Position numbers and translations under genes: made by a program. A DNA stretch of 40,001 nucleotides from Clostridia bacterium (lineage in GTDB: Bacteria; Bacillota; Clostridia; Christensenellales; Aristaeellaceae): assembly GCA_030526225.1 (NCBI GenBank), contig JAUNDF010000002.1, positions 5,128-45,128 of the forward strand, written 5' to 3'. This document shows, in pieces, positions 99-38,872 of the stretch. Every line of letters begins with the position of its first letter. Within the stretch, counting starts at the first letter, position 1. The notes under the pieces are model-generated. The model was given only the letters and a program-made list of their open reading frames with translations. It had not been told where the DNA came from and did not search any database.

Positions 99-152
99 CT
101 CCGAGGCAATGAAAAAATGTGACAAATTTCCGGATTTTATTGATGTCCAATT

Positions 153-1388
153 TTAGTGATGCATGCGGCCCTTGCCGAACAGGCTGCGGCGGCCGCCGTA
201 GGGGGTCATGCTGCCTGCCACCTGCGGGGTCAGGGCAGGGGCGGTCAGGCTGCGGTTCTTGGTAACGTTCAGCACCAGACCCACGCCCAGCATGTTGGTC
301 ATCATGTTGGAGCCGCCGTAGGAAATAAACGGCAGCGGGATGCCGGTAATGGGCATCAGGCCCATGGTCATGCCCATGTTCTCAAACACGTGGAACAGCA
401 GCATGCCCATCACGCCGATAATCACCAGCCGGCCGAACTTGTCGCGGGTGTAGGCGGACAGGTACAGCATCCGCAGGATAATCAGGAAGAAGACAATCAT
501 GATGCCCACACAGCCCACAAAGCCCCATGCCTCGCCGATGGTGGCGAAGATGAAGTCCGTCCAGTCGGCGGGCACGTAGTTCAGCTGGCTGATGGAGCCA
601 TCCACAAACATGCCGATGCCGGTCAGGCCGCCGGAGCCGATGGCTGTCTGGCTCTGCAAAACCTGATACGCGTCGGTGGAGGAATACAATTCGGGGTTGA
701 TGAAGGCCAGAATGCGGGCCAGACGGTAGCTGTCCGCGTTGGTGGCCACGGTAAAGCCGTACAGGGCGGCGATGCCGATGACGGCCACACCGGCCATGCC
801 CATCAGCAGACGGAAGTCCACGTTGGCAAAGAACAGCATCACGGCGAAGAAGAAAATAATCACCAGAACGCTGCCCATTTCGCCGGACATCAGGGTAACA
901 AAGGTGGGGATGGCGACAATCAGCATCACCCGGAAAAACTCCTGCACATTGCCCATGGGCTTTTCCGACTGGGAAAGAACACGGGACAGCATCAGAATCA
1001 TGGCCAGCTTGATGAACTATGACGGCTGCAGCGTCATGCCCCAAATGATGTCCAGCCACGCCTTCACGCCCTCGGCACGGTTCAGCACCCACACAAGGGT
1101 CAGGAAGATGGTGCCGCCCCAGTAGAAGATGGGCGTGTAGCGGCGCAGAAAGTCGTAGGGAATCAGGAGCAGTACGGAAAGCACCACAGGACCCAGCGCC
1201 AGGAATACGCACTGTTTCACCGCGTAGGAGGATTCCACGATGCGGTTGAGCAGTGAGCCTGTGGGGGCCGAGTCCACGGTGTAGGTAGCGACACACACTG
1301 CCAGCACACCGAAGACGGCCAGACTGAATACAAGCAGAATCAGCGGCACGTCCACATGGGCCCGTGAATGTCTGTTTTCAACGATCAA
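153..1388 (-). CDS. rodA: SEDS-family peptidoglycan polymerase RodA/FtsW, with one in-frame TAG at 1017-1019
   Basis: ORFs 1017-1388 and 153-1001 share a frame (1388-1001=387). Read on the minus strand the junction is ...GMTLQPS-TAG-FIKLAMILML. It carries the SEDS motifs QPS(E)F and PFISYGGS. The start is a TTG overlapping the minD TGA (TTGA). The true stop is TAA. Confidence 0.85.
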
Positions 1389-2194
1389 AGCTTGTTGACC
1401 TCCTTGTGCTTGCGGCCAAAGAGCCGGGAGAAGAAGCCGGGCTTGCGCACGCCGTAGGCGGGGAAGGGCTCATCCATGCCCTCCATGCGCGCGGCAATGC
1501 GGGTGAGGGCATAGCGGGCCTCGCAGTCGCACTGCATCAGCGGCTTGTGGTTAATCAGGCTCCGGTATACCACCGGGTCCCGGGGCACCTCGCCCAAAAG
1601 GGGCAGGTCCAGGGTCTGGGATACCACGGCGGCGGAGTACATTTCCCCTGCATCAATCAGCTCGCTGTCCAGCATGTTGACAACAAGGCGCGGGGAGGGC
1701 ATGTCCTTGCCCTGCAGCACGGAGGCGGTGCGCTCCACGTTGCGGATGCACACATCGTCCGGGGTGCTGATGAGGATGGTTTCGTCCGTGTGCTTGTTCA
1801 GCAGCCCGCGAAGGCCGCGCTCGATGCCGGCGGGGCAGTCAATGAGCACATGGTCAAAGCTGAGCTTCAGCTGGCCAATCAGCTTCATAAATGCCTTTTT
1901 GTCCAGATCCTTGCTGCGGGCAAACTGGGCGGCGGGGACGAGGAACAGGTTGGTGTAATCGCCGTGGCGAATCAGGGCCTAATCCATGCGGCAGCGCTTT
2001 TCCAGCACATCCAGCAAATCGTAGACCACCCGGTTTTCCACGCCCAGAATCACATCCTGATCGCGCAGGCCGATATCGGCATCCACAATGCAGCAGCGGC
2101 AGCCCCGCTGGCTGAGCGCGGCGCCCAGCGCGGCCGTTACGGTGGATTTGCCAACGCCGCCCTTGCCGGATGCAATGATCCATGCTTTGCCCAT
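1385..2194 (-). CDS. minD: Septum site-determining ATPase MinD, with one in-frame TAG at 1979-1981
   Basis: Deviant Walker A SGKGGVGKS, Walker B region LIDCPAG and a C-terminal amphipathic GFFSRLFG are present. ORFs 1979-2194 and 1385-1888 share a frame. The junction ...EKRCRMD-TAG-ALIRHGDYTNLFLVPAAQ... is collinear with B. subtilis MinD EGRCKMHQALVKDKRF. Stop is TGA. Confidence 0.85.
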
Positions 2195-2239
2195 GTGTGT
2201 TCCCTCCTGTATGTTGAGTGTGGGTTGGGGGATGCTGTG

Positions 2240-4804
2240 TTACGGGGCCACGGAGTTGCCGGTGGGCAGATCGTAATCCACCGTGCGCAGCTCTTCCTGG
2301 TTGAGGTACCAGTCCAGGAACTCTCTGGCGGCCATGGAGGCTTCACCGCCGGAATATCCGTTGGGGATAAACACCGCGATGGCAACCTCAGGTTTCTCGT
2401 AGGGGGCGAAGGTTACGAACCAGGCATTGTTCTCAAGGTCGATGGAGGTAACCTGAGCGGTACCGGTTTTTGCGCAGATTTCATCCCGGTATTTCCAGCC
2501 CTTGAAGTACTTGGCAGCAGTACCTGATTCGTCAACTACGCCCTTCATCCCCTTCTTGATGTAGGGCAGGTATTCCTCTGCGTTTTCCAGCACGTTGATG
2601 AGCGTAGGCTCGCGCTGGGAGAGGATTTCGCCCTCGGGGGAGATGATGGAGTCGATGATGGAAACGTTGTACACATAGCCGCCGTTGGCCAGGGCGCATA
2701 CATAGCGCGCAACGGCGACGGGGGTGACGGTGGTAACCGACTGGCCGATGGCCGTCAGAATGGTCTGGGCGCCGCCCCACTTGATGTCGTTCATGTAGTT
2801 GTACGTATCACCGATGACGGACTGCAGGTAGACCATTTCCTTGGTCATGTTCAGCTCTTCCATCAGGATGGTACGCATGTTGTCCAGCCAGTAGCTTTCA
2901 TCGTAGTTGACGGCCATGTCCATCAGGCGCTTGGCGCAGGCGGACAGACGGGCATCATCATAGGAAAGGTTTCTGGAGGCACCGCAGTTGCGCAGGTGCT
3001 TTTTGATGGAGTTGAAAACGATGATGGGCAGGGAGGTATCCTGACTGGCCTCGTTCATGGCCTTGGTGGTATCGTACAGGGTGTTCTGGCTGCCCACCAC
3101 GCTGCGGACCTCACCGGGCAGGTCGATGCCGGTTTTGCTGGTCAGGCCGAAGAGGGAGGCGTAGTGGTACAGCCGCTGCTCGCCCAAACGGCTGCCCAGC
3201 TCGTAGAAGAAGTAGTTGCAGGAGTTGGACAGACCCTCCACAATCGTCTGGTTTTGATGCTTCCAGCGGTTGCCCTTGCCAATCCAGCATTTGGGAGCGG
3301 TGGATTCGTCCTTGTTGTACTTGGTGTAGTAGCCCTGGTCGGTGATGCGCTCCTTCACCGTCAGCTCGCCCTCGCACAAGGCGCCCATGCTGGTGACCAT
3401 TTTGAAAATGGAGCCGGGGGTTCCGCGGGCGTGGATGCCGTAGTTGAGCAGCAGGTTGCGTTCATCGGCAAGGATGGTGATGGCTTCCTTGCCGCCGGCC
3501 ACCAGCGCATTCAGGTCGTAGGTGGGGTAGTTGGCCATGGCCAGCACCCGGTCCTCCATATCCAGAATGACCATACAGCCGTGCTCGGCCAGGGACATGG
3601 GGTAGGTGACCCAGTTGCGGTTGGCGATGTCCTCTTTGTTGTCCTCCAGCCAGGAGTCGGAGACCATCAGCTTTTCCTGATTGTCACGGGTGTTGTTGAC
3701 GTTGGCGGCAATGGCGCGCTCGGCCACCTCCTGATAGGAGGCATGGAGGGTCAGCTTGATGTTGTTGCCGTCCTGGGGGGCGGTGTAGCTCAGCTCGCGG
3801 ACCACGCGGCTCATGTTGTCGCGCTCCACCACGCGCTGGCCCTGACGCAGGTAGCTGTTCTGGGTCAGCCAGTCCTCCATGGAGGATTCGATGCCGTCGC
3901 GGCCGATGGTGTCATTGTACGAATAGCCCTTGGCCCGCAGGGTTTCCCACATGGCCTGGGAGGGGATGGCGCCGGTGTAGCCGATAATCTGGCTGGCAAG
4001 GGTTCGCTTGGGGTACACGCGCTTGGTGCCCACCTGAATTTCCATGCCCACCAGCATCATGGAGCGGGTCTCCACCTCGATGACTGTTTCGTACTTCACG
4101 TTCTGGGCGATGACGATGGGCTGGGAGGAGAACACGTTCATCTGCATTTCGCAGTAGATGGCCATGACCTTCAGCATGGTTTCCTCATCCAGAATGTGAA
4201 CGGGGGTGTACTTTTCGCCCTCCAGCTCCTTCAGGGGCTCGATTTCGCTGGCATCGTTGACAATGCGGAAGCGCTGCTTGAGCAGGTTGATGCACTTTTC
4301 CGCCGTGTCGTACTTGGTCATGCTGGTCAGGTAGTTGTTGCTGCGCCACTGGCGCTCACGCTTGGCCAGTACGCTGTCGGATACGCCGGAGCCGAAGTTG
4401 AACTCCCACTCGTTTGTTTCCGGATTGCGCTGAATGACAAAGTCAATGGCCATGGTACCGCCGTTGCGCTCGATGATTTCAATGGTGTCCACAATGGACT
4501 GGGTAAAGGCGGTGTATTCCCTGCGGGAATTCTGGGAGGCATCCTTGTAGAAGGTGACGTTGTAAATCAGCTCGTCCTCAGCCAGCAGCACGGAGTCCGC
4601 ATCGATGATGGAGCCGCGCTTGCCGCGCAGCACCACGGTTTTGGTGCGGGTGCTTTCCGCCTTGTCCGCATATTCCTCGCTGGATTTCAGCTGCAGGTTC
4701 ACAAGGCCGCTGACAAGGTAGGCGAACATCAGCAGCAGAATCACCACAAACAGGACATACCGCCACAGGATTCCCCGGGTGGCAGGGTTTGATGAACGGG
4801 CCAA
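2240..4804 (-). CDS. mrdA: Penicillin-binding protein 2 (elongasome class B transpeptidase)
   Basis: 854-aa ORF with an N-terminal TM helix and the transpeptidase motifs SxxK (GSIFK), SxN (SNS) and KTGT. A TTG start lies 6 nt after AGGAGG. Stop is TAA. It sits between mreD and minD. Confidence 0.9.
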   Translation of the reverse strand: MARSSNPATRGILWRYVLFVVILLLMFAYLVSGLVNLQLKSSEEYADKAESTRTKTVVLRGKRGSIIDADSVLLAEDELIYNVTFYKDASQNSRREYTAFTQSIVDTIEIIERNGGTMAIDFVIQRNPETNEWEFNFGSGVSDSVLAKRERQWRSNNYLTSMTKYDTAEKCINLLKQRFRIVNDASEIEPLKELEGEKYTPVHILDEETMLKVMAIYCEMQMNVFSSQPIVIAQNVKYETVIEVETRSMMLVGMEIQVGTKRVYPKRTLASQIIGYTGAIPSQAMWETLRAKGYSYNDTIGRDGIESSMEDWLTQNSYLRQGQRVVERDNMSRVVRELSYTAPQDGNNIKLTLHASYQEVAERAIAANVNNTRDNQEKLMVSDSWLEDNKEDIANRNWVTYPMSLAEHGCMVILDMEDRVLAMANYPTYDLNALVAGGKEAITILADERNLLLNYGIHARGTPGSIFKMVTSMGALCEGELTVKERITDQGYYTKYNKDESTAPKCWIGKGNRWKHQNQTIVEGLSNSCNYFFYELGSRLGEQRLYHYASLFGLTSKTGIDLPGEVRSVVGSQNTLYDTTKAMNEASQDTSLPIIVFNSIKKHLRNCGASRNLSYDDARLSACAKRLMDMAVNYDESYWLDNMRTILMEELNMTKEMVYLQSVIGDTYNYMNDIKWGGAQTILTAIGQSVTTVTPVAVARYVCALANGGYVYNVSIIDSIISPEGEILSQREPTLINVLENAEEYLPYIKKGMKGVVDESGTAAKYFKGWKYRDEICAKTGTAQVTSIDLENNAWFVTFAPYEKPEVAIAVFIPNGYSGGEASMAAREFLDWYLNQEELRTVDYDLPTGNSVAP

Positions 4805-4865
4805 CAGCGACCTCCTTTCTGTCCCCGGGGGCGAAAGCCGCAGGGACGCGTATTTCTGCCCGGGC

Positions 4866-5657
4866 TTACATGGCGTTCATGTAGCGGCCGCGGGCCTGTT
4901 TCTTTTCCTTGGGGGGCTTTTTGAAGCCCAGCATCCGGCGCACGGGCACCATCATCAGGATGGTGAGCACCGTGGTGTAGATCACAGCGCCGATAGCCCG
5001 GCCGTAGTGCACCGGCATCAGGGCAATGCCGCCGATGTACAGGTACAGCATGTGCACCACCTCGTACAGCAGCTGGCAGCAGGCGGCGCAAAGGGGCGTG
5101 CGCAGGTAGGGATGCATGTTGTGGGCCGAGGGATTGCTGGCCCGCTCCGCTTCCAGCCTCTTTTCACTCTTGTCGGCAAAGAATACCGACATGAACAGCG
5201 CCAGAATCGGGTACATCAGCAGATAGAAGAAAATCATGGGCTTCATCATTGCATCGGTGATGATGCCAAAGCAAGCGCCCGCCCAGTAGGCGCGGAGCAT
5301 GCCGTGGCACACGATGACGATGGCTATAACGGCCAGCATCACATTGGGGGTTACGCCGCCCATGGCCAGATAGGGCACGATGCACACCTGACACAGGTAT
5401 GCCAGCAGCACCACCAGCCAGAAGCGAACCAGCCGCATGATGCCGCGGAAGCAGCGGCTGACAAAGCCCAGAAAGCCCGTGCGCTGCTTTTCCTTTTTCA
5501 GGGCAGCCCGGTCGGTGGTGCGCAGGGTATCCGCCTGCCTTGTCCTGATGCCGACAGCCAGGGGATTCTCCGCTGCTTTCCCGGCAAGGGAAAAGCGGGA
5601 TTTCCCCTGCTCTGCCTGGGGGATGTCCTGGCCGGGCTGTCTTGTGATATCAGCCAT
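4866..5657 (-). CDS. mreD: Rod shape-determining protein MreD (start uncertain; an internal ATG at 5438 is possible)
   Basis: The C-terminal two thirds is polytopic and hydrophobic, and the gene sits directly after mreC. The ATG at 5657 lies 3 nt downstream of the mreC stop. The 73-aa N-terminal extension is basic and low in complexity. Confidence 0.7.
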   Translation of the reverse strand: MADITRQPGQDIPQAEQGKSRFSLAGKAAENPLAVGIRTRQADTLRTTDRAALKKEKQRTGFLGFVSRCFRGIMRLVRFWLVVLLAYLCQVCIVPYLAMGGVTPNVMLAVIAIVIVCHGMLRAYWAGACFGIITDAMMKPMIFFYLLMYPILALFMSVFFADKSEKRLEAERASNPSAHNMHPYLRTPLCAACCQLLYEVVHMLYLYIGGIALMPVHYGRAIGAVIYTTVLTILMMVPVRRMLGFKKPPKEKKQARGRYMNAM

Positions 5658-5660
5658 GGA

Positions 5661-7226
5661 TCAGTCCTCCTCCCAGGTCATGGTGGCAGGATCGGGGGTG
5701 ACATAGGGTGTGGGCGTGGGGCTGGGTGCTTCGGTGGGCACCTCCGTGGGCCCGAAGCTGACGGGGTTGTACTCGTACACCACCGGGGCCGGTGTGGGCA
5801 CCGGGGTGATGGTGGGCTCGGGGGTGGGCTCCGGCGTGGGTTCCGGCGTGGGAGAGGGGGTCACCTCAACCATTTCCATGGGGATGGGTGTTTCGCCGAA
5901 GGTGGAGCCGCCGATGCGCAGGGTCGGGTAGGGGCGGGCGGTGGGCAGCTCGGCATACTCCATGTTGGCATATGCGGAGGTGCGGCCGGTCACCGCCTCG
6001 GCTGCGGGCTTGTAGCGCAGGACAATCACGTATTCGATGTGCTCAAAGTCCACATAGGGCTGCACCACGATGTACTGCTTGTTGCTCTCCATGCCGCGGG
6101 TACTTTCGCGGACTGTGCCGATGGGGATGCCCTTGGGGAAGGACATGCCCACGCCGGAGGTGACCACCACGTCGCCGGGGCGGGGCAGGTGATCGTCGGA
6201 GAGGTAGTACATGCGGCACATGTAGGTGCCGTCAATGCCCAGGGTGCCGGAAACGGTGCCCTGATCGCGGCTGGACTGAATCAGCGCGGCGATGGAGGCA
6301 TCGCTGTCGATAATACAACGGACGTCGGCGGTGGTTTCTTTCACGTTTTCCGTATAACCCACCAGTGCGCCGGAGATGGTTACGGCCATGTAGTCCTCAA
6401 TGCCGTCACGCTTGCCGCGGTTGATGGTCATGGTGGAGAAATAGCTGTTGTCACCACGGCCGATGATGGCGCAGGTGATGGGGTTCATGGCCGTGTTGGA
6501 CTGAACCTCATCGTTGATGTTTTCGTACTGGTTCAGGCGGATTTGCAGCTCCTCGGCCAGCATGGCCTCATAGGTGAGGCGCTCGTTTTCCGCGCGCAGG
6601 TCGTTGTAGGCCACCTCGATGTTGGACCGCAGCTTCAGCTGGCGCAGATACCCGGCCACACCCTCGGTGATGGTGGAGAAGAAGCTCTGCACGGGGGTCA
6701 TGGCCCCGGCCACCGCATCCTCGGGAATGCCAAGGAAGCTGAGGTTGGAAATGTGGGAGAAGAACATAAAGCCCAGCACCGCCGTCAGCATCAGGGTGAT
6801 GATGACGATGAACAGCGTCCGCAGCTTTTTGGGGGTGCGGGCGGCGGAATCATCCTTTTTGGGGCGGCGGTCTTCCTCATCCATGCTGCCGTATTTCTGC
6901 CGCATTTTTCTGGTCAGGGCATCGCCGCTGTCCTGTTCATCCCGGAAGGCAGAGGCCGGGTCATCGGCGTAATCATCCGGTGCGGCCATGATATCGGGGA
7001 TGGACGGGGAGCCGTCATCCTCGTCCTCCTCCATCAGGTCGGCATCATCGGGGATGTGCTTTTCCCGGCTGATGCCCTCATCGGCATAGCCGCTGGAGCC
7101 CATGGAGAAGGAATAGCCCAGACCGCCGTCATCCCGCATATCATCATAGATAAAATCATCATACGCCGGGGCGGCGGGGGTATGCTCATTGCTGCCGCTG
7201 TTTTTGCGGAAGGGATTTCTTGCCAT
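5661..7226 (-). CDS. mreC: Rod shape-determining protein MreC (long form, with an acidic N-terminal and a Pro/Thr-rich C-terminal extension)
   Basis: 521 aa with a TM segment, a coiled coil and an MreC beta-barrel core (VVTSGVGMSFPKGIPIGTV). Located between mreB and mreD. Stop is TGA. Confidence 0.85.
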   Translation of the reverse strand: MARNPFRKNSGSNEHTPAAPAYDDFIYDDMRDDGGLGYSFSMGSSGYADEGISREKHIPDDADLMEEDEDDGSPSIPDIMAAPDDYADDPASAFRDEQDSGDALTRKMRQKYGSMDEEDRRPKKDDSAARTPKKLRTLFIVIITLMLTAVLGFMFFSHISNLSFLGIPEDAVAGAMTPVQSFFSTITEGVAGYLRQLKLRSNIEVAYNDLRAENERLTYEAMLAEELQIRLNQYENINDEVQSNTAMNPITCAIIGRGDNSYFSTMTINRGKRDGIEDYMAVTISGALVGYTENVKETTADVRCIIDSDASIAALIQSSRDQGTVSGTLGIDGTYMCRMYYLSDDHLPRPGDVVVTSGVGMSFPKGIPIGTVRESTRGMESNKQYIVVQPYVDFEHIEYVIVLRYKPAAEAVTGRTSAYANMEYAELPTARPYPTLRIGGSTFGETPIPMEMVEVTPSPTPEPTPEPTPEPTITPVPTPAPVVYEYNPVSFGPTEVPTEAPSPTPTPYVTPDPATMTWEED

Positions 7227-7247
7227 TGTGTCACCTCGAAGGGTCGG

Positions 7248-8270
7248 TTATTCTTCTGCCGTCTGCCCGGAGAAGGACATGAGCAGGTTCATGTTTTCCA
7301 CCAGATAGCCCAGACCCATGATGGTGCAGTCCATGGGCTCACGGGCCAGCAGCACGGGGATGTTCAGCTCCTCGGCAATAAACTGGTCCATGCCGTACAG
7401 CTGGGTGCCGCCGCCGGTGAGGTGGATGCCGCCGCGCATGATGTCGCCGGCCAGCTCCGGGGGCGTGCGCTCCAGCACCCACTTGATGGCCGTCAGCACG
7501 GATTGGCAGGGGTCGCGCAGCGCCTCGTAGCACTGCTGGGTATCAAAGATGACCTCCTTGGCGTTGTGGGGGCCGGTGCCGTAGGGGGTGCCTACGATTT
7601 TGCTGCGGGTGTTGTGGCTCAGGGGGATGGCGGTGCCAAAGTCCTTCTTCAGCTTTTCCGCCGTGCGGATGCCGATGGAGACCTTGTGCTCCCGCAGGAT
7701 GTAGGCGGCGATGGCCTCGTCCATCTTGTTGCCGCCCAGCCGCACGGAATGGGCCACCACCATGCCGCCCAGGGAGACCAGGGCCACATCCGTGGTGCCG
7801 CCGCCGATATCCACCACCATGCTGCCCACCGGCTCATACACCGGCAGACCGCTGCCGATGGCGGCCGCATAGGGCTTTTCTACCAGGAATACGTGCTTTA
7901 CGCCGGCCTGATGGGCGGCCTCCTCCACGGCGCGGCGCTCGACCGCAGACAGGGTGGAGGGCACGGCGATGACGGCCTTGGGCTTCATGAAATGGCTGGA
8001 GCCGATGGCCTTGCGAATCAGGCTCTTGAGCAGGGCGGCGGTCATTTCAAAATCCACAATGGAGCCGTTGCGCAGGGGAAACACGGTTTCCAGCTGGTCA
8101 TTTACGCGGCCGAACATCACATAGGCATCATCGCCCACAGCCACCACCAGCCGCTTGTTTTTCGCGTCCCGCACGATGATGCTGGGCTCGCTGACCACCA
8201 CGCCGCGGCCGCGCACGTAGATGGTTGTATTGGAAGTACCTAAATCGATACCGATTTCGGGTGAGAACAT
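7248..8270 (-). CDS. mreB: Actin-like rod shape protein MreB
   Basis: 340 aa with the ASKHA motifs GIDLGTSNT, VVDIGGGTTDVA and IHLTGGG. Confidence 0.95.
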   Translation of the reverse strand: MFSPEIGIDLGTSNTTIYVRGRGVVVSEPSIIVRDAKNKRLVVAVGDDAYVMFGRVNDQLETVFPLRNGSIVDFEMTAALLKSLIRKAIGSSHFMKPKAVIAVPSTLSAVERRAVEEAAHQAGVKHVFLVEKPYAAAIGSGLPVYEPVGSMVVDIGGGTTDVALVSLGGMVVAHSVRLGGNKMDEAIAAYILREHKVSIGIRTAEKLKKDFGTAIPLSHNTRSKIVGTPYGTGPHNAKEVIFDTQQCYEALRDPCQSVLTAIKWVLERTPPELAGDIMRGGIHLTGGGTQLYGMDQFIAEELNIPVLLAREPMDCTIMGLGYLVENMNLLMSFSGQTAEE

Positions 8271-8310
8271 ATTTGATTGTTACCTCTCAGTCTTGTCTGT
8301 CACGAAGGAT

Positions 8311-8883
8311 TCAGGGCAGTATCTCGATGCCGCTTTCTTCCAGCAGCCTGCGGGTCAGGTCCAAAGGCAGGCCAATGACGCAGGAGGAGCTGCCGCGGAT
8401 CTGGTCAATCCACAGGCCCGCTGCGCCCTGCAGTGCATAGGCACCGGCCTTGTCCATGGGCTCGCCGGTGGCGATATAGCGGCGGATTTCTTCATCGGTC
8501 ATGTGGGTAAAGTGCACATCCGTCACGTCGGTGCCGGTGTGCATCAGCCCGCTGCTGTCGCAGACCACCACGCCTGTGCAGACCTGGTGCCAGCGATTGC
8601 GCAGGGAGGAGAGCATGCGGAAGGCATCCGCCTCATCCCGGGGCTTGCCAAGGGGCGTGTCATCCACAAACACAAGGGTGTCGGAGGCCAGCACCGTGCA
8701 GCCGGGGTGTGCCTTGGCAATGGCGGCTGCCTTTCTGCGGCTGATTTCCACCACCGCCTCCTTCATGGGCAGGGCGCAGCTTTCGTCCACATCGGCGGAT
8801 TCCACGGTAAAGGGAACGCCGGTCAGGGCCAGCAGCTCGCGTCTGCGGGGGGAAGCGGATGCCAGAATCAGTTGCGTGTTCAT
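8311..8883 (-). CDS. maf: Maf-like nucleoside triphosphate pyrophosphatase / septum formation protein
   Basis: 190 aa with LILASASPRRRELL and GAYALQG. It is the first gene of the maf-mreBCD cluster. Confidence 0.9.
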   Translation of the reverse strand: MNTQLILASASPRRRELLALTGVPFTVESADVDESCALPMKEAVVEISRRKAAAIAKAHPGCTVLASDTLVFVDDTPLGKPRDEADAFRMLSSLRNRWHQVCTGVVVCDSSGLMHTGTDVTDVHFTHMTDEEIRRYIATGEPMDKAGAYALQGAAGLWIDQIRGSSSCVIGLPLDLTRRLLEESGIEILP

Positions 8884-9251: not shown

Positions 9252-9368
9252 ACCCTCTCAGTCTTCGCTTCGCTCAGCCAGCTCTCCCAGAGGGAGAGCC
9301 ATTATTCAGGTTGACAAACTGAAAAGGCTCCCACTTTGGGGGAGCTGTCAGCTTCAGCTGACTGAGAG
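9252..9368. repeat. REP/MITE-like element with hairpin-bearing inverted arms
   Basis: The left arm is aaccctctcagtcttcgcttcgctcagccagctctcccagagggagagcc. The right arm is ggctcccactttgggggagctgtcagcttcagctgactgagaggg. Its reverse complement begins ccctctcagtc, like the left arm. A short AT-richer core separates the arms. Confidence 0.7.
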
Positions 9369-9371
9369 GGC

Positions 9372-11164: not shown

Positions 11165-11186
11165 GTTCTTTTCCTCCCTCGCACGA

Positions 11187-12983: not shown

Positions 12984-13016
12984 AAAGATTTCCTCCTTAA
13001 GAAAATCGTGTGCGTC

Positions 13017-13385: not shown

Positions 13386-13416
13386 AAGCAATTCTCCTTT
13401 ATACAGGCAATCTGAT

Positions 13417-13959: not shown

Positions 13960-13971
13960 GGCAAATCAACC

Positions 13972-14439: not shown

Positions 14440-14632
14440 GATGTAATTACCTCCTTGAATCGGGCGGCTTGACGGATGGATGCCGTCACAGCCTAAATCG
14501 TTTTAATTTTAACATAAATTTGGCAAAAAGGGAAATGGAAAAACACAAAAAATCCGCAATATCAGCAAAAAAATACAAAAAACATAGAAAATCACGAAAA
14601 AATCATACCGGATTACCCAAAAAGAGGAAGAA
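14440..14632 (-). promoter_or_regulatory. AT-rich leader/promoter region for the hydC-hydA structural genes
   Basis: This is the only AT-rich gap in the locus. The minus strand has an extended -10, TGtTAAAAT (forward 14506-14514), with only a weak -35. Phased T-tracts lie upstream (forward A-tracts 14567-14602), and a small hairpin gacgg-atggatg-ccgtc sits at 14471-14487. Confidence 0.3.
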
Positions 14633-15346
14633 TCAGCGGATGATTTCCTTCCCGGAGGCGGCCAGCAGGGTATCGAACAGACCGCCGGCGGAAAACCTGT
14701 CCGTGGGGAAATCGAACACCGCCTATTGAATCTTGCCCAATTGGTGGGCATCGGAGGAATGCAGCACCGCTCTGCCTGCAAGGATTTTCTCATTGATGGG
14801 CAGCTGAGGGGAAACCTCCACCAGCCCGTAGTGCGGCTCATCAGGCATCAGGCCCAGATTGACCAGCAGGCCGTTGCTGCCCCGGTTGATGTGGGCCGGC
14901 ACCGCAATGCCCCCTCTGCGGCGAACCTCTGCGGTGCATTCCTCAAGGGATAAATCCGTGGCGCCGATGAGCATCCTGTCCTCGGTGAAGCGAATGACAT
15001 CATCCGTGTCGCGAACATACTGGGTGCCGAAGAAGTCGGGCATGTTGGGCATATCCGGCAGATGGGAGGAGAAGAATTCCCCGGCATCCACCGCAGCCTC
15101 CACGGTGCGGAAGTACCCCAGCAGGTGCACCTCCTCCCGGGTGGTAATCTCCAGCCCCGGCAGCAGAATCAGCCCGAAATAATCAGCCGCTTCCTTGACA
15201 TAGGGCAGATTGAGGGCGGAGTTGTGGTCGGTGACGGCGATGGCCTGCAGCCCTTTGATGTGAGCCATGCCGCAGATGTTGGCGGGGGTCATGTCCTCAT
15301 CTGCGCAGGGGGACAGGCAGGAGTGAATGTGCAGGTCAACCAGCAA
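14633..15346 (-). CDS. PHP (polymerase/histidinol phosphatase) domain protein; the apparent TAG stop at 14723-14725 is read through to TGA at 14633
   Basis: DLHIHS, VTDHNS and HSSDAH motifs are present. After ...HQLGKIQ-TAG the frame stays open for 29 codons (AVFDFPTDRFSAGGLFDTLLAASGKEIIR) and ends at TGA. Confidence 0.7.
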
Positions 15347-15352
15347 GGCGTG

Positions 15353-15706: not shown

Positions 15707-15728
15707 GGGGCATCAGTCCTTCCCATCT

Positions 15729-17027
15729 TTACTGTCTCGTATTCTGTGCCAGGGCCACCATTTGCTGGGCCATGGCGCGCAGGTGATCCTTCAGGATGTG
15801 GATGCAGTCCATCTCGCTGGCGTAGCCCCGGACGATATCCTCGGCGAAGGTGCGGCAGGTGGGGGAGCCGCAGGAGCCGCAGTCGTAGCCGGGCAGGCGG
15901 TTGATGGTTTCGTCAATCTGCTCCATTTTCCGCATGGCCTCGATGATGTCGTCGTCCAGCCGCATGGCACCGTTGGGCAGCACCACATCGGGTGCGTGCA
16001 GCTGGATGCCCTCCAGCAGGTTCAGCTCCACCGGCTTTTCCGGCAGCAGGGCCGGGTCGCCTTCAATCAGCCGGCGGACGATATTGCGGGCCACATAGTT
16101 GTTTTCAAAATTCAGCGGACCGCCCACGCAGCCGCCGGTGCAGGCGTTGCCCTCGAAGAAATCAAGGTCGCTGAGCTTGCCGTCCTCAATCTCCTAAAGC
16201 ACACGGATGACGTTCTCAATCCCGTCCACGGACATGCTGCTGCTGTGGCCCACCGCATTGGCCTCGCCGCCGCTGTTGGCCCAGCCCACGCCCAGGGCGC
16301 TGGCGGTGACCAGCGTGTCATCCTCTTCGGCTTGCTTGGTGTGGCTTGAGAGCAGACCGTAGATTTCCAGCACGCTGATGGCCCCGTCCACCGCGGAGGT
16401 GGGATGGCCGATGGGGGAGCGGATGGCGGTCACCTTGGCCGGGCAGGGAGTGATGAAAAAGCAGCCGATGTCCTCCTCCGGCACGCGGTTTTTCCTTGCG
16501 AACGCCCGCTTGGCCATCATGGCGGCAACCTCCATGGGCTGGCGCACATCCACGAGGTTGTCAATCAAATCGGGGAAGCGCACCTGAATCAGCCGCACAA
16601 TGGCCGGGCAGGCGGAGGAAATCAGCGGCTTGGGGCAATCAGGCTCCCGCAGCTTTTCCTGAATGACGCGGGTGACCACATCGGCACCCCGGGCCACCTC
16701 AAACACATCGTCAAAGCCCATTTTCTTCAGCCCCGCCAGCACCGGAGAGATGCTGTGCAGCGTTTTAAACTGCCCATACAGGCTGGGGGCCGGCAGGGCG
16801 ATTTTGTATTTGAAGGCGCTGATGGTGCTCAGCGGGTCCGTTACCGCCACCTTGGCGTGATGGTCGCACACGCGGATGCATTCGCCGCAGTCGATGCACA
16901 GCTCGTCGATGATATGCGCTCTGCCGCCGCGCACGCGGATGGCCTCCGTGGGGCAGCGCTTGAGGCAATTGGTGCAGCCCCTGCATTTATCCGCCAGAAG
17001 CGTGACAGAGTGGAAGCGTTTTTCCAT
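15729..17027 (-). CDS. HydS-like (putative sensory) [FeFe]-hydrogenase-domain protein, with one in-frame TAG at 16194-16196
   Basis: It has two N-terminal ferredoxin motifs. The H-cluster-type motifs are SSACPAIV (Ala at the relay-Cys position), TPCPAKV and ACTGGCVGG. A C-terminal CGSCGSPTC Fe-S domain follows. ORFs 16194-17027 and 15729-16127 share a frame (900 nt apart). The junction reads ...NVIRVL-TAG-EIEDGKLSDLDFFEGNACTGGCVGG. Confidence 0.8.
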
Positions 17028-21999: not shown

Positions 22000-23039
22000 C
22001 AGTTCAGCACCGCCGCTTTCATCCCGCCCCAGCGGGTCGTTTGGGATACCAGCTGCCGCAGCCCCTGCAGCATGGCGGGGGTGGGCTGCTGGGTGAGCAT
22101 GGAGGCCAGCACCTCCTGCATATCACGCATACCAACGCCCTGCTTGGCCAGAATGCGCAAATCCTGCACGGCCTCATCCTCGTTGGTTTCCGGGCGCACG
22201 GCATCCTGAATCAGACCAATCATCTGCAGCGTGGTTTCTGCCTCTTCAGGCAGGATGCCCGCCACGGCGCTGAGCAGCGTCATTTCGTCCATTCTGGGGG
22301 GCAGGCTGCTGCCCATGGCGGCAATGAAGGGCTCCGGCTCCGCAAGGCCCGGGTGCAAAAGAAACCGGCGGCCGTCCATGCGGCAGATAAAGTCACAGCT
22401 GATGTGCAGATACCGCTGGCACAGGCGGATGTCATCGGGGTCATCGGTCTCCATGGCATCCTGCACCAGATGCTCCAGCGCCTCCTCAAAGGGGACCACG
22501 CCGCGTATGTACAGCAGACCCCGCAGCGTCATGTCAAAGCGCATCAGGCGCTCGCGCAGCTCCTTGTGCACGTCATCGAAAATCATCTCGGCCACGGAGG
22601 GCACCAGCTACGGGGACATGCGCAGGAACAGCCGCTCGTCATCAACCCATTCAAGGTAGCACCACAGCCGCCGCACCAGCGACTCGGCAGGGAGGGCATC
22701 CTCCATGTCTGTCAATTCGGCCCGGCCGCCGCCCACAATCAGCTTTTCCAGCAGCAGATGCTCGGGGAGGGTGACCAGCGCCGTTTCCACCGGAAGGTTT
22801 TCGATGACCATATCCCGCAGCATGCTGACGGTATGCAGCCGCCTTTCCCGGGGGAACTCCTGGGCAGCATGGCTGATGGACCACAGCTGCTCGGCGCGGC
22901 TGTCATCCTGTAAAGCGAATAAATCAAAATCCGGCAACCCGGAAAGCCGGCTTTCGCAGGCCTCCAGCTGTCGGAGATGCAGGACAGACATGGTCTTGTC
23001 CGCCCAGTGATCATACCGAACATTGTTTTCCCGAAGCAT
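21999..23039 (-). CDS. Hypothetical protein (346 codons), with one in-frame TAG at 22608-22610
   Basis: ORFs 22608-23039 and 21999-22604 share a frame (435 nt apart). The junction reads ...ERLFLRMSP-TAG-LVPSVAEMIFDD. A strong RBS, AAAGGAGAACAA, precedes the ATG at 23039. There is no RBS or start for the second half. Stop is TGA. Confidence 0.65.
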
Positions 23040-26348: not shown

Positions 26349-29300
26349 TGGAGGAAAAGATGACAGCCCGAACCGGGGAGCAGACAGCCGACCGTCTGCT
26401 GCCCTCCTTCAGCATGCTTCCGGTGTGCGATATCCCCGCAGACCAGCCCACGGGTGTGGTGGGCATCGGCCACGGCAGCAGCCGCTGGCTCCGCCGTCTG
26501 GCCGACCGCCTGGGCGGCACCGGCATGACCTATGCGGCCAAAGAAAAGCTGGCCGGGGCCATCCGGGACAAGGGCGAGGCATACACCTGCTGGCGGGGAA
26601 TGCTGGCCATGCTGCTCCTGTGGGATTTGCACCGTGATGCGCCCCAAGCCTTGGAGGCCGTTTGCTGGGACAAGGGCACGCCTTTGGCCGCCATGCTGCT
26701 GGAAGCCTCCGGTCTGCAGGACAGCGCCGCCTTTGGGGAGAAGCTGTGCGTGATGACCCTTCGTCAGGGCGGCAGACAGCTGCCTGTGGCCATTCCCGAC
26801 CGGGAGGCACTGCTGGTGCCCGCCGTGGATGCATCCCTTGACAGCGACGTGATTCCCCCGTGGGTCACATGGTTTGACCGGGATGAGGGCAAAATGCAGG
26901 ACCCCGTGGGGCTGATGAACGAAACGGAGCGGGAGGTGCTGGTCAAGCGGCTGCAGCTGTTCCTGCAGGCGTATGGCGCGGAGGAAAGCGCCCTGTCACA
27001 GGCGGTGCGCCAATTGGCAGAGGACACGGCAAAAATCAACCGCGATGCCAGAGAAGCCCTGTCAGACAGCAAGGGCAGTGCCGTGCAGGAGCTGGCATTG
27101 CGCATTGAGGCCATCCTTGGGCTGAAGGGTCACGAGGCTTTCCCGGGGCTGACCGGCGACAGCGCGGTGATGCAGACCGGCGGCACCAATCCGGTGCTGA
27201 GTGCATTGCACATCCCCCACAGCGCGGACCGCAAGCTGGTGTGCTGCACCACCTACCGCTGGAACGGCGTTCCCTTTGCCCGGGATGCCGAGCGCTTTGT
27301 CTACGAGCCTACGGGCCATGCTGACGAAGCCGCCGCGCTGGATGAACTGAGCCTGGAGCTGGACCTTGCGGCGGAATATATCCCCCACTGGAACGAGCAT
27401 CTGTCCGGGGGGCTCAGCGAGCTGTGGGAAAAGTGCAAGCGCAAAAACCGCCTGTATCCCGCGGTGACCAAAACGGTGTTCCAGCTGTTTGGCCGTGCGG
27501 ACAAGCAGAAGGAAACAAAGCCCGTGGTGCTGAACATTCCCGAGGAACGGGGTCTTGCCGCCGCCGGGTATCTGATGAAAACACTGCTTGGCGATGATGC
27601 GGCCCAGCTGCCCCAGAAGCTGTTCAGCGACCGGCTGACGCTGGTGCCCTTTGCCGCCCTTGCGGATGGTGCGCTGGCACAGGCCGCCTTTGTCCGCTAT
27701 GATGAGGACGGCAGCCCCCTGTGCGCTCTGCCGCCCCTGTCTGCGGCGCTCACCGCCTTTTTGACCGAGCGGGCTCACATCACCCTGCAGCCGGAGGGGC
27801 TGCGCTTCCTGCCTGCCGATGAGGAGGGCAGCCTGTAGGTGCGCCTGATGCTCCGCGGCGCGGGGGAGGTGTCCTTCAGCCGCGTATATCGGGCAGAGGA
27901 TATCATCACCCTGAACCATGACAGCATGCCCACGGTCAGCGTGTGGCCCGGCGTGGCTTTCCCTGAGGGGGACTGGCAGTATTATCTGCTTTAGGCCTTC
28001 CGCGGCGAAGAAGGCATCACCTTCAGCGTGTGGGAAAAGGATGGCTGGGTGCACTGCGCTCAGGGTGCGGAGGAGCGCATTTTCCGTGGGGCAAGGTGCA
28101 GCCGTTATCCCCGATTGATGGCCGTCAGCATGGACGGACTCTCCTTGGGTGCACTGCCCGATACGCCCCCTGTGTGCGATGTGCCCTCCGGCGGCGAAGC
28201 GGCGGCGGGCATCGACTTCGGCTCCTCTGCCGCGGCCACGGCCATCCTGATGGGCGACAGCATGATGAGCATCACCGGGGCAGATTGCCGCCGGGTGCTG
28301 ATGCAGGGCGAATTTGCGCCGGTGCCTGTGCTGGCCCAGCCGGTGATGCCCTCGGCACTGCAGCTGTGCGCCCGTCAGCTGCCCCATCGCCCCCAGCCTA
28401 TGCTGGACAGCCGCATCCCCTCCGAGGCGGATACGCTGGCAGAGGGCGCGGAAAACATCATCGACAACATCCCGTGGCGGGTGGAAAATGACCGGCAGGA
28501 AATGATTCGCCTGTACATGCTCCAGCTGATGCTCACCACGGCGCTGGCCTGCCGCCTTCAGGGTGCCGACCGCATCACGTGGCGCTTTGCCCTGCCCGAC
28601 AGCATGGCTTAGGCCGGCAAGGCATCGCTGATGAACCAGCTGTCCTACCTGACGGATGAACTGGCGGACATGACAGGGCTGCCTGCCCAAAAGGAGCCGC
28701 CGGTGATGGTCCCCGGCTGCCGTGCTCAGATGCTGTACTTCCGCGAGCGCAGGGATGTGAATGTGCGCGGCGGGTGCATCCTGCTGGATGTGGGCAGCAA
28801 CGGTGCCTCCGTGGCCCTGTGGCTTCGGGGCAGGCAGGCCCCTGTGCTGCAGATGGCGCTGCCTCTGGGCGTGGACCTGATGCTGGAAACCATGGCGGAT
28901 GAAAGCCAGATCAGCGCACTGCTGCACCTGCACGGCGCCTTCCTGATGCTCCTTTCCGGCGTGATGGCCCAGAGCGTGTACATGACCTCCTCCGTCAGCC
29001 ATCTGCTGCCGGAAACCATGCCGGTGTGCATGGCGGGACGGGGCGGCTCCTTGCTGCAGCGCATTGACGAAATGGACCGCATCCGCCTGCTGGACTTTAT
29101 GCGCCCGGCCATGGAGGAGACCCATCCCACCGTATCCGCCGGCTATGTGTTCAGCGAATACCCGAAGATGGAAACAGCCGCCGGCCTTGTGCTGTATGCT
29201 CCGGAGCAGGAGGAGGACACCGCCTCTGCCGGCATTGCCATGCGGACCCCGTGGCCGCCGGAGCAGCTGCTGATTGGCTTTATGCGCCTGTTCGGCGTGC

Positions 29301-29910: not shown

Positions 29911-30909
29911 ATGAAAAGATTGTTTGCGGCGGTGCTGGCCATGGTGCTGGCGCTGTCCCTGACCTGTGCCCATGGCGATATCCTCCCCGATACCGCCCCG
30001 CTGGGCCTTTCCTTTGATGTCAACGCCGCGGAATGGGAGCCGGATTTGATGTTCCTCGACTCTGCGGCGGCAGACAAGAGCTATGTGCTGCTGTATGCCA
30101 TGTACATCAACAGCGCCGTGATGGACCCGCTGGCGGATGCCTATTAGCAGGCCTATGAAGCCGGTGACGAGGCCGGGGCAGAAGCGGCCCTGACGGCGTA
30201 CCGGCAGGCACAGACGGCCAATTCCGCTGTGTGCGGCATGCTGGTGGGCTTTGAAAAATCACAGGCGGATGCGCTGAAGGCAGAAATCTTCGGGGATGCC
30301 CAGCTGACAAAGGTGGGCGAAAGCAGCACCCATGTGTACTACAAAATCGTGGCCGAGGAGCCTGACGAAGCCCTTTCCCCGGAGAATCAGGCAGAGATGG
30401 TCAAGGCCATCGCCCTGACAAAGCAGGTCTTCGATGCGGCACAGGTGGTTGAAATCACCGAGGAAAGCTATACCGGCACATCCATCGGCGCCTTCTCCAC
30501 CCGGGATCTGCAGGGCAGTGAGGTGACGGATGACATCTTCGCACAGGCGGATTTGACCGTGCTCAACGTGTGGGCCACCACCTGCCCGCCCTGCATCCGC
30601 GAGATGCCCGAGCTGGAGGCATGGTCCCATGATCTGCCCGAAAATGTACAGGTCATCGGCCTTGTGATTGACGTAAGCGACACCTCCGGCAAGGTGTATG
30701 ACACCGCCATGACCATCATCGGCAAAACCGGCGTCACCTACCGCAACCTGATGATGGACCGCTCCCTGACGGGCTTTGTCAGCGGCATCATCGGCACCCC
30801 CACCACCTTCTTTGTGGATAAGGACGGCCGTCAGGTGTGCGAGCCTGTGGTGGGTGCGTATATGGACATGTACAGGCAGAACGTGACTGACTGGCTTTCC
30901 GGCCGGTAA
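29911..30909 (+). CDS. TlpA/ResA-like thioredoxin-fold lipoprotein, with one in-frame TAG at 30145-30147
   Basis: Signal peptide MKRLFAAVLAMVLALSLTC and active site WATTCPPC. ORFs 29911-30147 and 30229-30909 share a frame (318 nt apart). The junction reads ...DPLADAY-TAG-QAYEAGDEAG. Confidence 0.75.
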
Positions 30910-35047: not shown

Positions 35048-36394
35048 TCAGAACCGGACGGTAATGGCGGTGCCCTTGCCCTCTTCGCTCTCCAGCTTGA
35101 TGTCGGCGCTGTGGATTTCGGCAATGTGCTTGACGATGCTCAGGCCCAGACCGGTGCCGCCGGTTTCCCGGGAGCGGCTCTTGTCCACCCGGTAGAAGCG
35201 CTCGAACACGCGGCTTTGCTGCTCCTTCGGGATGCCGATGCCGCTGTCGGATACGGTGAGGATGGCGTGGCTGTTCTCCGAGGAGACCTTCACCCGCACC
35301 CAGCCGCCGTCACGGTTGTAGCGGATGGCGTTCTGCAGCAGGTTCTCCAGAAGCTCCTTCAGCTGTTCGCGGTCGCCGGTGAGCATGGTATCCGTGCCGA
35401 TGCAGCTGATGGTGATGTTCCTTTGAGCGGCGGTGATACGCAGGGTGCGCACACAGTCCAGCGCCAGCTTGTACAGGTTCAGGTGCTCGAATTTGTGGGG
35501 CAGCTACTGATGGTCCAGCTCGCTGAGGCGGATGATGTCGTTGATCAGGCTCAGCAGACGGTCGGCATTTTGGTGAATCTGCCCGGCGATTCTGCCGGAC
35601 TGGTCCGGGGGCACCATGCCCGCTTCAATCAGCTCTGCATAGCCGGAAATGGCGGTGAGGGGCGTTTTCAGCTCGTGGGAGATGTTGGCGGTAAAATCCT
35701 GCCGGCTTTTGACGGAGGACAGCAGCTTGTCGTGCTGGCTGCGGATTTTATCCGCAAAGGGCTCCAGCTCCCGGTATTCCATGGGGTCGATGTGGTCCAG
35801 ATGCTCGGCCATCTTGTTGATGGGGCGGATGAGCTGCACCGTCAGCAGATGACCGATGACGATGCACAGCCCCATGATGACGGCCAGAATCACCACCATC
35901 ACCGGCAGGGCGGAAAGCATCACGCTGATGATGGACCGTGCCTCGGTGGATACGCGCAGAACCGTGCTGTCCGGCAGGAGCAGCGCGTAATAGAAGGTGG
36001 ACATGTTCTGCGTGGAGGAGGTGCGGGTGCTTTCACCAGTGCCCTGCGCCAGGGCAGCGGTGATTTCCGGGCGGTCCAGGTGGTTGCCCAGGGCATCGGC
36101 GTTGGTATCGTTGTCATACAGCACACGGCCGTCATGATCCACCCAGGTGATGCGCAGACCGTCCACATGCATGGCAGCCATGGGGGACAGGTCGATGGCG
36201 TCCGGGTTGCCGCCGGCCTTTTCGTAGGCGGTCTGGAAAATCCCCGTGCCGGAAAGCATCCGGGCGTTGGTGGCAAGGTCCATGCGGACCCGGCCCACGA
36301 AAATGTTGTAGTACACAAAGGTCAGGGCGGCGGTGGTGGCCAAAATGGCAATCAGCGCAATCAGCCCCAGCCGCAGGTTGATTTTCTGCTTCAT
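35048..36394 (-). CDS. PhoR-like sensor histidine kinase, with one in-frame TAG at 35504-35506
   Basis: It has two TM segments, the H-box SHELKTPLTAI, the N box LLQNAIRYN, and G boxes DSGIGIP and GGTGLGLSI. ORFs 35504-36394 and 35048-35452 share a frame (942 nt apart). The junction reads ...LSELDHQ-TAG-LPHKFEHLNLYKLALD. Confidence 0.8.
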
Positions 36395-37093: not shown

Positions 37094-38872
37094 TCATCCG
37101 TTCTGCACCGGCAGGGTATAATGCCGGCGGCACTTCTTATATTCTTCGGCAAACCAGGGGGCTTCTCCTTTTACGGCGGTGTATTTGTGGGTGCCGAATT
37201 CGTCATGGGCGGTTTCAATCAGGCACACGGCCACATTGGAGCAGTGGTCGGATACGCGCTCGTGGTCGGTGATGATGTCCTCCAGCACAAGGCCTGCCTC
37301 CATGGAGCAGCGGCCGGTGCGAAGGCGGGCGATGTGGCGCTGCTTCATTTCGTCCCGCAGGTCATCCACCACCTGTTCCAGCGGCTATACGCTCCTGGCC
37401 AGCAGGGTGTCCCCGTCGGCAAACACGGTGACGGTCAAATCAAGAATGTCCGACACGGCGCGGCCGAAGGCGGTCAGCTCGTCCATGGCATCATCCGACA
37501 GGGTGATGCCCTTCTCCCGCAGCTCCCGGGCGGATTCCACCATGTTCATCGCGTGGTCGGAGATGCGCTCGAAATCGGAGATGGAGTGCAGCAGCTGGCT
37601 GAGCAGCTTGCTGTCCTCCAGCGCCAGATCGTGGCCGGAAAGCTTGACCAGATAGCTGCCCAATGCATCCTCATAGCGGTCGCACAGCTTTTCCATGGCC
37701 AGCACCTCACCGGCCTTTGCTTCATCAAACCTGTACAGCACCTGCATGCCCGTGCGGAAGGCCTTGCGGGCGGTATCCGCCATTTCATCCGCGGCATTTT
37801 TGCACAGGCGGATGGCGAAGGAGGGCTGGTCGAGGAAGCGCTCGTCCAATGCGGCCAGCACGGCAGGCTGCTGCACGGCGGGCTTTGCATCGCCCTTGTC
37901 GGGGATGGTCTTCTCCGCCATCTTCACCAGCAGATTGCCGAAGGGGAACAGAATCAGGGTGCAGCCGACATTGAACACGGTGTGCATCAGGGCGATGCCT
38001 GCCGCGCCCACGGCTTCATCCAGGAAGGGCATGGGGACAAACAGCTTCGCGCCGTAGAAGCCGGCCATAAACAGCACCGAGCCGATGACGTTGTAATACA
38101 GGTGAATCATGGCGGCGCGCCGGGCATTTTTGCTGGCACCGGCCGAGGAAAGAATGGCGGTGACGCAGGTGCCGATGTTCTGCCCCAGAATGATGGGCAG
38201 CGCCGTGCCCCAGGTAACCATGCCGGTCATGCACAATGCCTGCAGAATACCCACCGAGGCAGAGGAGGACTGAATCACGGCCGTGAGCACTGCACCGGCC
38301 AGCACGCCCAGAATGGGGTTGGAGAAGGCTGTGAGCAGGCCGGTGAAGTTGGGGTCATCCTTCAGGGGAGAGACAGCGCCGGACATGGTTTCCATGCCGG
38401 TCATCAGCACCGTGAAGCCGAGGAAGATGGTGCCGACAGTCTTCTTTTTGCTGCCCTCTTTGGCGGTCATCAGCAGAATGATGCCGATCAGCGCCAGCAC
38501 AGGGGAGAAGGAGGAGGGCTTCAGCAGCCGGATGAAAATGTTGGTGCCGGAGATGCCTGCCAGGGACAGAATCCAGCTGGTCACCGTGGTGCCGATGTTG
38601 GCGCCCATGATGATGCCTACCGCCTGCCCCAGCTTCATGATGCCGGCGTTGACAAAGCCCACCACCATCACCGTGGTGGCAGAGGAGGACTGAATCACCG
38701 CCGTGACCACCATGCCCAGCAGCAGGGCGGCAAAGCGGTTTTTCGTCAGCTTTTCAAGAATTTTCTCCAGCCGTCCGCCGGAGAGCTGGACCAGACCGTC
38801 GCCCATCACCTTCATGCCGTACAGGAACAGGGCAAGGCCGCCTGCCATGGTCAAAACATGGAAAATATCCAT
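37094..38872 (-). CDS. Na/Pi cotransporter family protein with C-terminal PhoU-like repeats, with one in-frame TAG at 37385-37387
   Basis: It carries GANIGTTVTSW and GQNIGTCVTA, then PhoU-like FERISDH and ERVSDHCSN. ORFs 37385-38872 and 37094-37372 share a frame (1500 nt apart). The junction reads ...TLLARSV-TAG-PLEQVVDDLRDEMK. Confidence 0.8.

Follow-up and report, generated by a model that had tools for sequence, protein, structure and literature searches.

In a Clostridia lineage, the amber codon UAG is likely to be a sense codon for glutamate, with TAA and TGA as the sole stop codons. Three lines of evidence carry this reading: TAG codons that interrupt genes across which the coding signal persists, the use of stop codons in the same DNA and in related lineages, and the residues that homologues place opposite each TAG. 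Throughout, 'the window' denotes the whole stretch of DNA that was analysed, 40,001 nucleotides in length.

Results

TAG lies within coding sequence

Translating the window with TAG kept open, and choosing coding frames by homology and codon usage, yielded 32 genes. Nine of them hold 11 in-frame TAGs between them (Table 1), and none holds an in-frame TAA or TGA. The same genes end in TGA (19) or TAA (13) and never in TAG. In-frame TAGs make up 11 of 11,782 codons, or about 1.4% of the Glu codons in the window.

Table 1 Coordinates of minD, rodA and the 11 in-frame TAG codons in the window
Feature	Position	Strand	Remarks
minD	1385-2194	-	269 codons, TGA end; intact but for TAG; Pfam and PDB matches
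In-frame TAG of minD	1979..1981	-	Aligned column mostly Gln; Glu, Asp, Ala, Lys and Arg also occur
rodA (FtsW/RodA/SpoVE family)	153..1400	-	TAA end; start codon tentative
In-frame TAG of rodA	1017..1019	-	Glu position in conserved QPSE-x-x-K motif
In-frame TAG of PHP-domain gene (14633-15346)	14723..14725	-	30 codons 5' of TGA; coding score carries on
In-frame TAG of [FeFe]-hydrogenase-like gene (15729-17027)	16194..16196	-	Column Glu 94, Asp 25, Asn 8, Gln 3 of 149
In-frame TAG of unknown-family gene (21999-23039)	22608..22610	-	Variable, badly aligned column; uninformative
TAG 1 of 3, unknown-function 1051-codon gene (26345-29500)	27836..27838	+	Without usable homologues
TAG 2 of 3, 1051-codon gene (26345-29500)	27992..27994	+	
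TAG 3 of 3, 1051-codon gene (26345-29500)	28610..28612	+	
TAG of thioredoxin-like lipoprotein gene (29911-30909)	30145..30147	+	Variable N-terminal part; 'thioredoxin-like' label read off the sequence rather than obtained by family search
In-frame TAG of histidine kinase gene (35048-36394)	35504..35506	-	Glu in 2/2 close orthologues
In-frame TAG of Na/Pi cotransporter-PhoU gene (37094-38872)	37385..37387	-	Glu in 120/120 homologues

Coding signal continues through these codons. A codon-usage log-odds score, trained on the window and taken over 60 codons either side of each TAG, is above zero both before and after all 11. In standard-code relatives, the score falls after a TAG that is a real stop, or rises where the TAG precedes a start codon. 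Pfam domains and orthologue alignments run across the window TAGs, and the genes that bear them are free of frameshifts. The codons are also reproducible: Logan contig L086 equals window positions 118-2923 at 100%, including the rodA and minD TAGs, and L005 equals positions 35563-38680 at 100%, including the TAG of the Na/Pi transporter gene. These two contigs are separate assemblies, both from run SRR24915835. We looked for a sequence context shared by the window TAGs, such as a methylation or base-calling motif, and found none.

These observations bear directly on whether the TAGs are simply nonsense mutations or assembly errors, that is, whether the genes are broken in pseudogenes, in a mutator lineage or by a sequencing artefact. 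GenBank treats the genes as split, and its record for MinD comprises only the C-terminal 167 amino acids ('P-loop NTPase', MDO4482945.1); moreover, pseudogenes with in-frame stops can look like reassignment, as the authors of Codetta caution. Yet breakage would have to account for 11 of 11 in-frame stops being TAG in frames with an unbroken coding score, for hits in essential cell-shape genes, for identical independent assemblies and for a pattern that recurs in three other lineages. The aligned columns are biased towards Glu, whereas transitions favour Gln and Trp, and no TAG falls in a Trp, Tyr, Lys, Leu or Ser column, as random nonsense mutation would produce. This explanation is close to refuted, and we give it next to no credence. 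We hold with high confidence that TAG is a sense codon in this lineage.

In-frame TAGs and stop usage in related lineages

A metagenome scan with the window ilvE, the gene for a branched-chain aminotransferase, returned 80 loci. In L033 (12 kb) and L070 (21 kb), TAGs lie within coding frames and all genes end in TAA or TGA. A third related locus, L092, is a Logan contig of 50% G+C that carries the closest homologue of the Na/Pi transporter (72% identity), and an in-frame TAG interrupts its response-regulator gene. The TAGs of L033, L070 and L092 occupy positions other than those in the window. In a neighbour-joining tree of ilvE, a single gene, the window groups with L033 and L070; the clade also takes in L006-L010, whose called genes contain no TAG, either in frame or as a stop.

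TAG does serve as a stop elsewhere in the family. It ends rodA in the more distant relatives L002-L004 and 2 of 14 genes in L093. Scanning reference genomes with MinD gave only four loci, 57-64% identical; no recoding is seen in any of them, and in three TAG closes rodA. An exact look-up of MreB gave no record. By crude gene calls, TAG accounts for roughly 5-8% of stops in standard-code relatives. Because TAG stops are already rare there, their absence from the 32 gene ends of the window (P ~0.12) is weak by itself. Across the four recoded lineages, 0 of ~59 genes end in TAG (P ~0.02 given the same 5-8%).

Several candidate sites were set aside. In 15 other loci, 18 TAGs that seemed internal were either genuine stop codons or lay 5' of a start codon. 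L048 seemed to carry an in-frame TAG, but its frame was wrong and non-coding, as were those of two long 'genes' of L070 (16038-17276 and 17900-20761, plus strand), and all were dropped. An all-against-all comparison of open reading frames was swamped by conserved antisense frames in this G+C-rich family, and frame filters and a codon model were used instead.

Conserved columns opposite TAG are glutamate

We then asked which residue homologues carry at each TAG. At the rodA site, which had been said at first pass to point to Glu, this proved right: Glu occupies the column in all six relatives (L001-L004, L087 and L090) and in the solved RodA structures of E. coli and T. thermophilus. The window sequence retains the Lys of the motif three residues downstream. 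The Glu of QPSE-x-x-K is reported by Sjodt et al. (2018) to form a required salt bridge with this Lys, an interaction for which our literature search gave nothing. In the Na/Pi transporter, TAG falls in an invariant column of the motif SVEPLEEV. The column in the hydrogenase-like protein is more mixed (Table 1), with Glu in all 13 of the closest homologues. At the rodA, transporter and histidine kinase sites, the codon used by relatives is GAA or GAG.

The related recoded lineages follow suit. Both TAG columns of the L070 RecG hold Glu in each of four solved chains (E. coli RecG, T. maritima RecG and two Mfd structures), and the column of the L070 PhoH holds Glu in its sole solved homologue, 3b85. 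Glu is likewise found in 23 of 38 sequences at the L070 RluA site, in 4 of 4 at a site in a conserved protein of L033 and in both orthologues of the L092 response regulator. For RluA of L033, Glu (13) and Asp (11) are both frequent, and one L033 RluA site has Gln as its commonest residue (15/39). The column of the L033 branching enzyme is variable. Altogether, four window sites and seven sites in related recoded lineages are Glu columns. Across the 18 sites scored below, Glu is the most frequent residue at 11, and Gln is commonest only at minD and two variable columns.

Five of the 11 window TAGs are without informative homologues. A database search with the 1051-residue protein gave one homologue at 25% identity, leaving its three sites uninformative, and PDB searches with the PHP protein and with distant PhoU domains gave no usable column. 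The Gln signal at position 22608 came from a badly aligned stretch in which the nearest relatives have Ala, Thr or Pro, and it was discounted.

We scored the 18 sites by column likelihood, counting at most 20 residues per site and adding pseudocounts of 5. The score is our own and treats related sequences as partly independent. Pooled log-likelihoods are 20.9 for Glu, 3.6 for Gln and -4.1 for Asp; for the six informative sites of the window alone, they are 7.4 for Glu and 1.9 for Gln. The first-pass annotation was borne out in holding that more sites were needed to fix the residue. It had also named an outcome that would speak against reassignment, namely TAG columns with no preferred residue, and across these 18 sites Glu is preferred. 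Judged by alignment, the conserved columns opposite TAG are Glu throughout, as expected if the codon has one preferred amino acid.

The minD codon as a probable tolerated exception

The minD site deserves separate attention because its column is mostly Gln. On the minus strand the sequence is cgc atg gat TAG gcc ctg att cgc, with the TAG at 1981..1979, as first annotated, and the view that this TAG is a translated codon is supported over random nonsense mutation by the sequence, by the intact domains and by a coding score that continues past it. The deviant Walker A motif SGKGGVGKST spans residues 9-18, Pfam matches to ParA, CbiA and MipZ span residues 5-234, and a PDB search matched solved MinD structures (best E = 1e-42). 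The C-terminal amphipathic tail, KPGFFSRLFGRK, is encoded 3' of the TAG. By its sequence, the product is a MinD, with a deviant Walker A motif, a ParA/CbiA fold and a C-terminal amphipathic membrane-targeting helix. The genes minC and minE are not neighbours of minD in the window.

The TAG had been described as aligned with a conserved Gln. The alignment with Gln stands: E. coli MinD (3q9l) has Gln here (...atlnQalikd...), as does P. aeruginosa MinD, and so do 104 of the best 119 database homologues. The conservation is broad but incomplete, since the remaining homologues have Glu (6), Asp (5), Ser (2), Ala (1) or Arg (1), and among other solved structures the Aquifex protein has Lys and the Pyrococcus protein Asp. 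In a tree of the closest 45 MinD sequences, the window protein forms a long branch, and its neighbours have Gln (P0017), Glu (P0003), Asp (P0002, P0005, P0006 and P0011) or Ala (P0004). This range shows that an acidic residue is accepted in that part of the family. Relatives with Gln at this column encode it as CAG, a single C-to-T transition from TAG.

Because the column varies among the nearest relatives (Glu, Asp, Ala, Gln and Arg), minD does not contradict a Glu reading, and the apparent conflict between rodA and minD is resolved once this local variability is taken into account. The best reading of the minD TAG, on present sequence comparisons, is a Gln-to-Glu change that is tolerated.

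Glutamine as a possible sole or partial product

At first pass, Gln and Glu had both been named as live candidates. An equal standing of the two is not supported by the wider set of sites, in which four conserved columns of the window and seven of its relatives are Glu and minD alone in the window is Gln. A Gln code does have points in its favour. Gln is the commonest amber reassignment elsewhere, and a supE-like tRNA-Gln needs only one base change in its anticodon, from CUG to CUA. The minD column, the one L033 RluA site and the rank of Gln as second-best residue overall are what such a code would predict. It fares poorly at the remaining sites: Glu leads by ~17 log units pooled and by 5.5 in the window alone, Gln makes up only 3 of 149 residues in the hydrogenase-like column, and some columns (Na/Pi transporter, RodA, both RecG/Mfd) have no Gln at all. 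TAGs at conserved Gln, the pattern of a table 15-like code, are not what we see; invariant-Glu columns dominate. Since a Gln code would demand that Gln take the place of Glu where RodA, the transporter and RecG have it invariant, it is much less likely, and we regard it as very improbable.

A subtler alternative, in that ambiguous insertion had also been raised at first pass, is that both Glu and Gln are inserted at TAG, for example by a single tRNA(CUA) charged with Glu by a non-discriminating GluRS and partially amidated by GatCAB. Many Firmicutes form Gln-tRNA by amidating Glu-tRNA, which makes Glu and Gln the one pair deliverable by a single tRNA. The sites do form two classes, a majority of Glu columns and a small number of Gln columns, with no rival from any other class of residue. 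However, the Gln-type sites are few and each of their columns also contains Glu or Asp, so that they are accounted for if TAG means only Glu and CAG now and then mutates to TAG. Frequent insertion of Gln would also harm invariant Glu positions, and the sequence gives no direct sign of ambiguity. We consider ambiguous decoding unlikely. Were it true, every TAG would give two protein forms, TAGs would settle at both Glu and Gln sites, and the lineage would offer a case of a bacterial genetic code that is ambiguous by nature and permanently so.

Discussion

How UAG could have come to mean glutamate

Returning to glutamate as the sole product, we propose a dedicated tRNA, bearing the anticodon CUA, that GluRS would charge with Glu and that would escape amidation. 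Near-cognate reading of UAG in RF1-free E. coli inserts mainly Gln, Tyr and Lys rather than Glu, so the Glu signal points to a dedicated tRNA. A scan for tRNA(CUA) found none in the window or in any related locus scanned; the window holds no tRNA of any kind and has 0 Rfam matches. Release factor 1, which reads UAG and UAA, would be lost or inactive on UAG, with RF2 covering UAA and UGA. The RF1 gene prfA lies outside the window. Low use of TAG stops across the family may have made the change cheap.

Under such a Glu code, the majority of TAGs would have replaced Glu codons silently, while a smaller share would have arisen from CAG, by the commonest mutation, where Gln-to-Glu is tolerated. The TAGs of rodA and of the Na/Pi transporter, hydrogenase-like and histidine kinase genes would be synonymous replacements of GAG or GAA. 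The minD TAG would reflect a CAG-to-TAG transition at a position tolerant of an acidic residue, and MinD would be made at full length with Glu where most MinD proteins carry Gln. As a rough estimate, a CAG-to-TAG origin may apply to about a third of the TAGs.

Comparison with known genetic codes

Among bacteria, reassignment of UGA to Trp or Gly (tables 4 and 25) is familiar from Mycoplasmatales, insect endosymbionts, Eggerthellaceae and Absconditabacteria/Gracilibacteria. The likeness to our case is that a stop codon has turned sense genome-wide in a bacterial clade. The differences are that the codon here is UAG rather than UGA, that the residue is Glu, and that the genome has a G+C content of 60% and the window no sign of genome reduction. 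With UAG reassigned rather than UGA, RF1 would become dispensable instead of RF2. The signature to be expected of such a reassignment is a cognate tRNA together with loss of whichever release factor is specific to the codon (PMC13462651).

Recoded phages (table 15) and supE strains resemble the proposed system in that a tRNA with anticodon CUA reads UAG and in that table 11 splits the genes. They insert Gln and keep TAG as a stop, whereas here the columns are Glu, the genes are chromosomal housekeeping genes and no gene ends in TAG. Glu is the meaning of UAG in the nuclear codes of two eukaryotic groups, peritrich ciliates (table 30) and Blastocrithidia (table 31), which have a single eRF1 and in which UAA is reassigned too; in the window, TAA closes 13 of 32 genes and is never found inside a reading frame, so only the UAG half of a UAR-to-Glu code fits.

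Pyrrolysine presents a prokaryotic precedent. Genome-wide reassignment of UAG to pyrrolysine has been described in archaea (Kivenson et al. 2025, as presented in the gTranslate preprint), and it is the sole genome-wide prokaryotic amber reassignment reported in the searchable literature. It shares with our case a poor visibility to methods based on coding density. It differs in domain of life, in residue and in its dedicated Pyl machinery; here the amino acid is a standard one. If TAG encoded pyrrolysine or another non-standard residue in this lineage, pylT, pylSBCD, TAGs in methylamine methyltransferase genes and columns without a preferred standard residue would be expected. The window contains no such genes, the TAG columns prefer Glu and are acidic rather than Lys-like, and the TAG of rodA has its partner in a Lys three residues downstream. 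On these columns and the genes of the window, a non-standard residue is exceedingly improbable.

The proposed end state, with no UAG stops, termination by RF2 only and UAG available for an amino acid, resembles that of engineered E. coli (C321.deltaA and 'Ochre', PMC11903333). There, RF1 was deleted by design; the lineage described here would be a natural counterpart, with a predicted loss of RF1.

Significance

All known bacterial stop reassignments were stated to involve UGA by Shulgina and Eddy (2021). A 2026 k-mer screen of ~2.7 million assemblies reported three new candidate sense-codon changes and described no bacterial TAG reassignment; sense readings of TAA and TAG, in archaeal assemblies, were treated there as possible contamination. 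Only UGA changes in bacteria, along with UAG-to-pyrrolysine in archaea, are listed in the gTranslate preprint and in a paper from 2026 on Eggerthellaceae (PMC13462651). Our phrase searches for UAG or TAG to glutamate returned eukaryotic cases only, in a searched literature that excludes subscription journals. UAG-to-Glu in bacteria is thus without a report in the searchable literature, and the present case may be the first bacterial amber-codon reassignment described.

If correct, the reading extends bacterial stop reassignment to the amber codon, in a Clostridia lineage of free-living type. It also predicts natural loss of RF1 and provides a test case for the capture of a stop codon that was already rare. 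A practical consequence concerns annotation. Table 11 splits or truncates 9 of the 32 window genes, about a quarter, which would leave both protein databases and estimates of genome quality wrong for this clade.

TAG usage and base composition in relatives

TAG terminates only ~5-8% of genes, making it an unusually rare stop family-wide according to crude gene calls from the metagenome relatives L006-L049 and L050-L085, together with L087 and L091. Among the close relatives L006-L010, L012, L087 and L091, called genes contained no TAG at all, whether terminating a gene or lying in frame within it. Such scarcity looks like the depleted state expected ahead of codon capture. We found that lineages carrying in-frame TAG span ~10 points of G+C, from 50% in L092 and 56% in L070 to 60% in both L033 and the window; reassignment is therefore independent of any single base composition.

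Effect on public annotation

Because public annotation applies table 11, in which TAG is a stop, genes containing TAG are split or truncated. Nine of the 32 window genes, about a quarter, are affected in this way, including minD, whose product was deposited as a short 'P-loop NTPase'. Gene calls on the matching Logan contigs L086 and L005 likewise break rodA and the Na/Pi transporter gene into two pieces each.

Features of the window

The features noted in the window are listed with their positions.

Coordinates of genes and repeats in the window
Feature	Position	Strand or orientation	Details
mre-min region	153-8883		maf, mreB, mreC, mreD, PBP2, minD, rodA
MinD as deposited	1385-1888		167 aa; MDO4482945.1
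Hydrogenase-like cluster with adjoining genes	9416-17487		HydA, NuoF-like, NuoE-like; regulatory genes alongside
Neighbouring large genes	24471-29500	plus	625 and 1051 codons
Intergenic repeat	17931-17997; 32006-32072		67 nt; 2 copies, 97% identical
Short palindromic intergenic element	5-31; 50-97; 9323-9370	both	AAAGGCTCCC…GGGGGAGCTGTCAGC…GCTGACTGAGAGGG
Separate inverted repeat	34226-34324		30 nt

The window shares its maf-to-rodA gene order with the related loci L001-L004 and L087, and neither minC nor minE adjoins minD within this region. At its N terminus MreC is extended by a long acidic stretch, and at the C-terminal end it has a repeat rich in Pro and Thr (PTPEPTPEPTPEPT). Separately, L002, L003 and L004 are near-identical Clostridia-type loci publicly labelled Bacteroidaceae, Alloprevotella and Anaerovoracaceae, so not every label can be correct; some of the MAGs, at a minimum, seem to carry the wrong taxonomic name.

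The HydA, NuoF-like and NuoE-like genes look like an electron-bifurcating [FeFe]-hydrogenase cluster. The genes adjoining them encode a sensory hydrogenase-like protein, which carries an Fe-S domain at its C-terminal end, as well as a PHP phosphoesterase and a pair of histidine-kinase-like proteins of the ATPase or anti-sigma kind. Of these regulatory genes beside the cluster, two carry TAGs.

Each copy of the 67-nt repeat contains a G+C-rich hairpin (…CACGCCGCAAGCGGCGCG… and …CCCCAACGGGGGAAGG…), and neither copy matched Rfam. The palindromic element and the 30-nt inverted repeat are probably REP-like or terminator elements.

Neither large plus-strand gene had a Pfam match as tested. A search of 5.8 billion proteins returned a single distant homologue of the 1051-codon gene (1752 aa, 25% identity), and this gene holds 3 of the 11 in-frame TAGs in the window.
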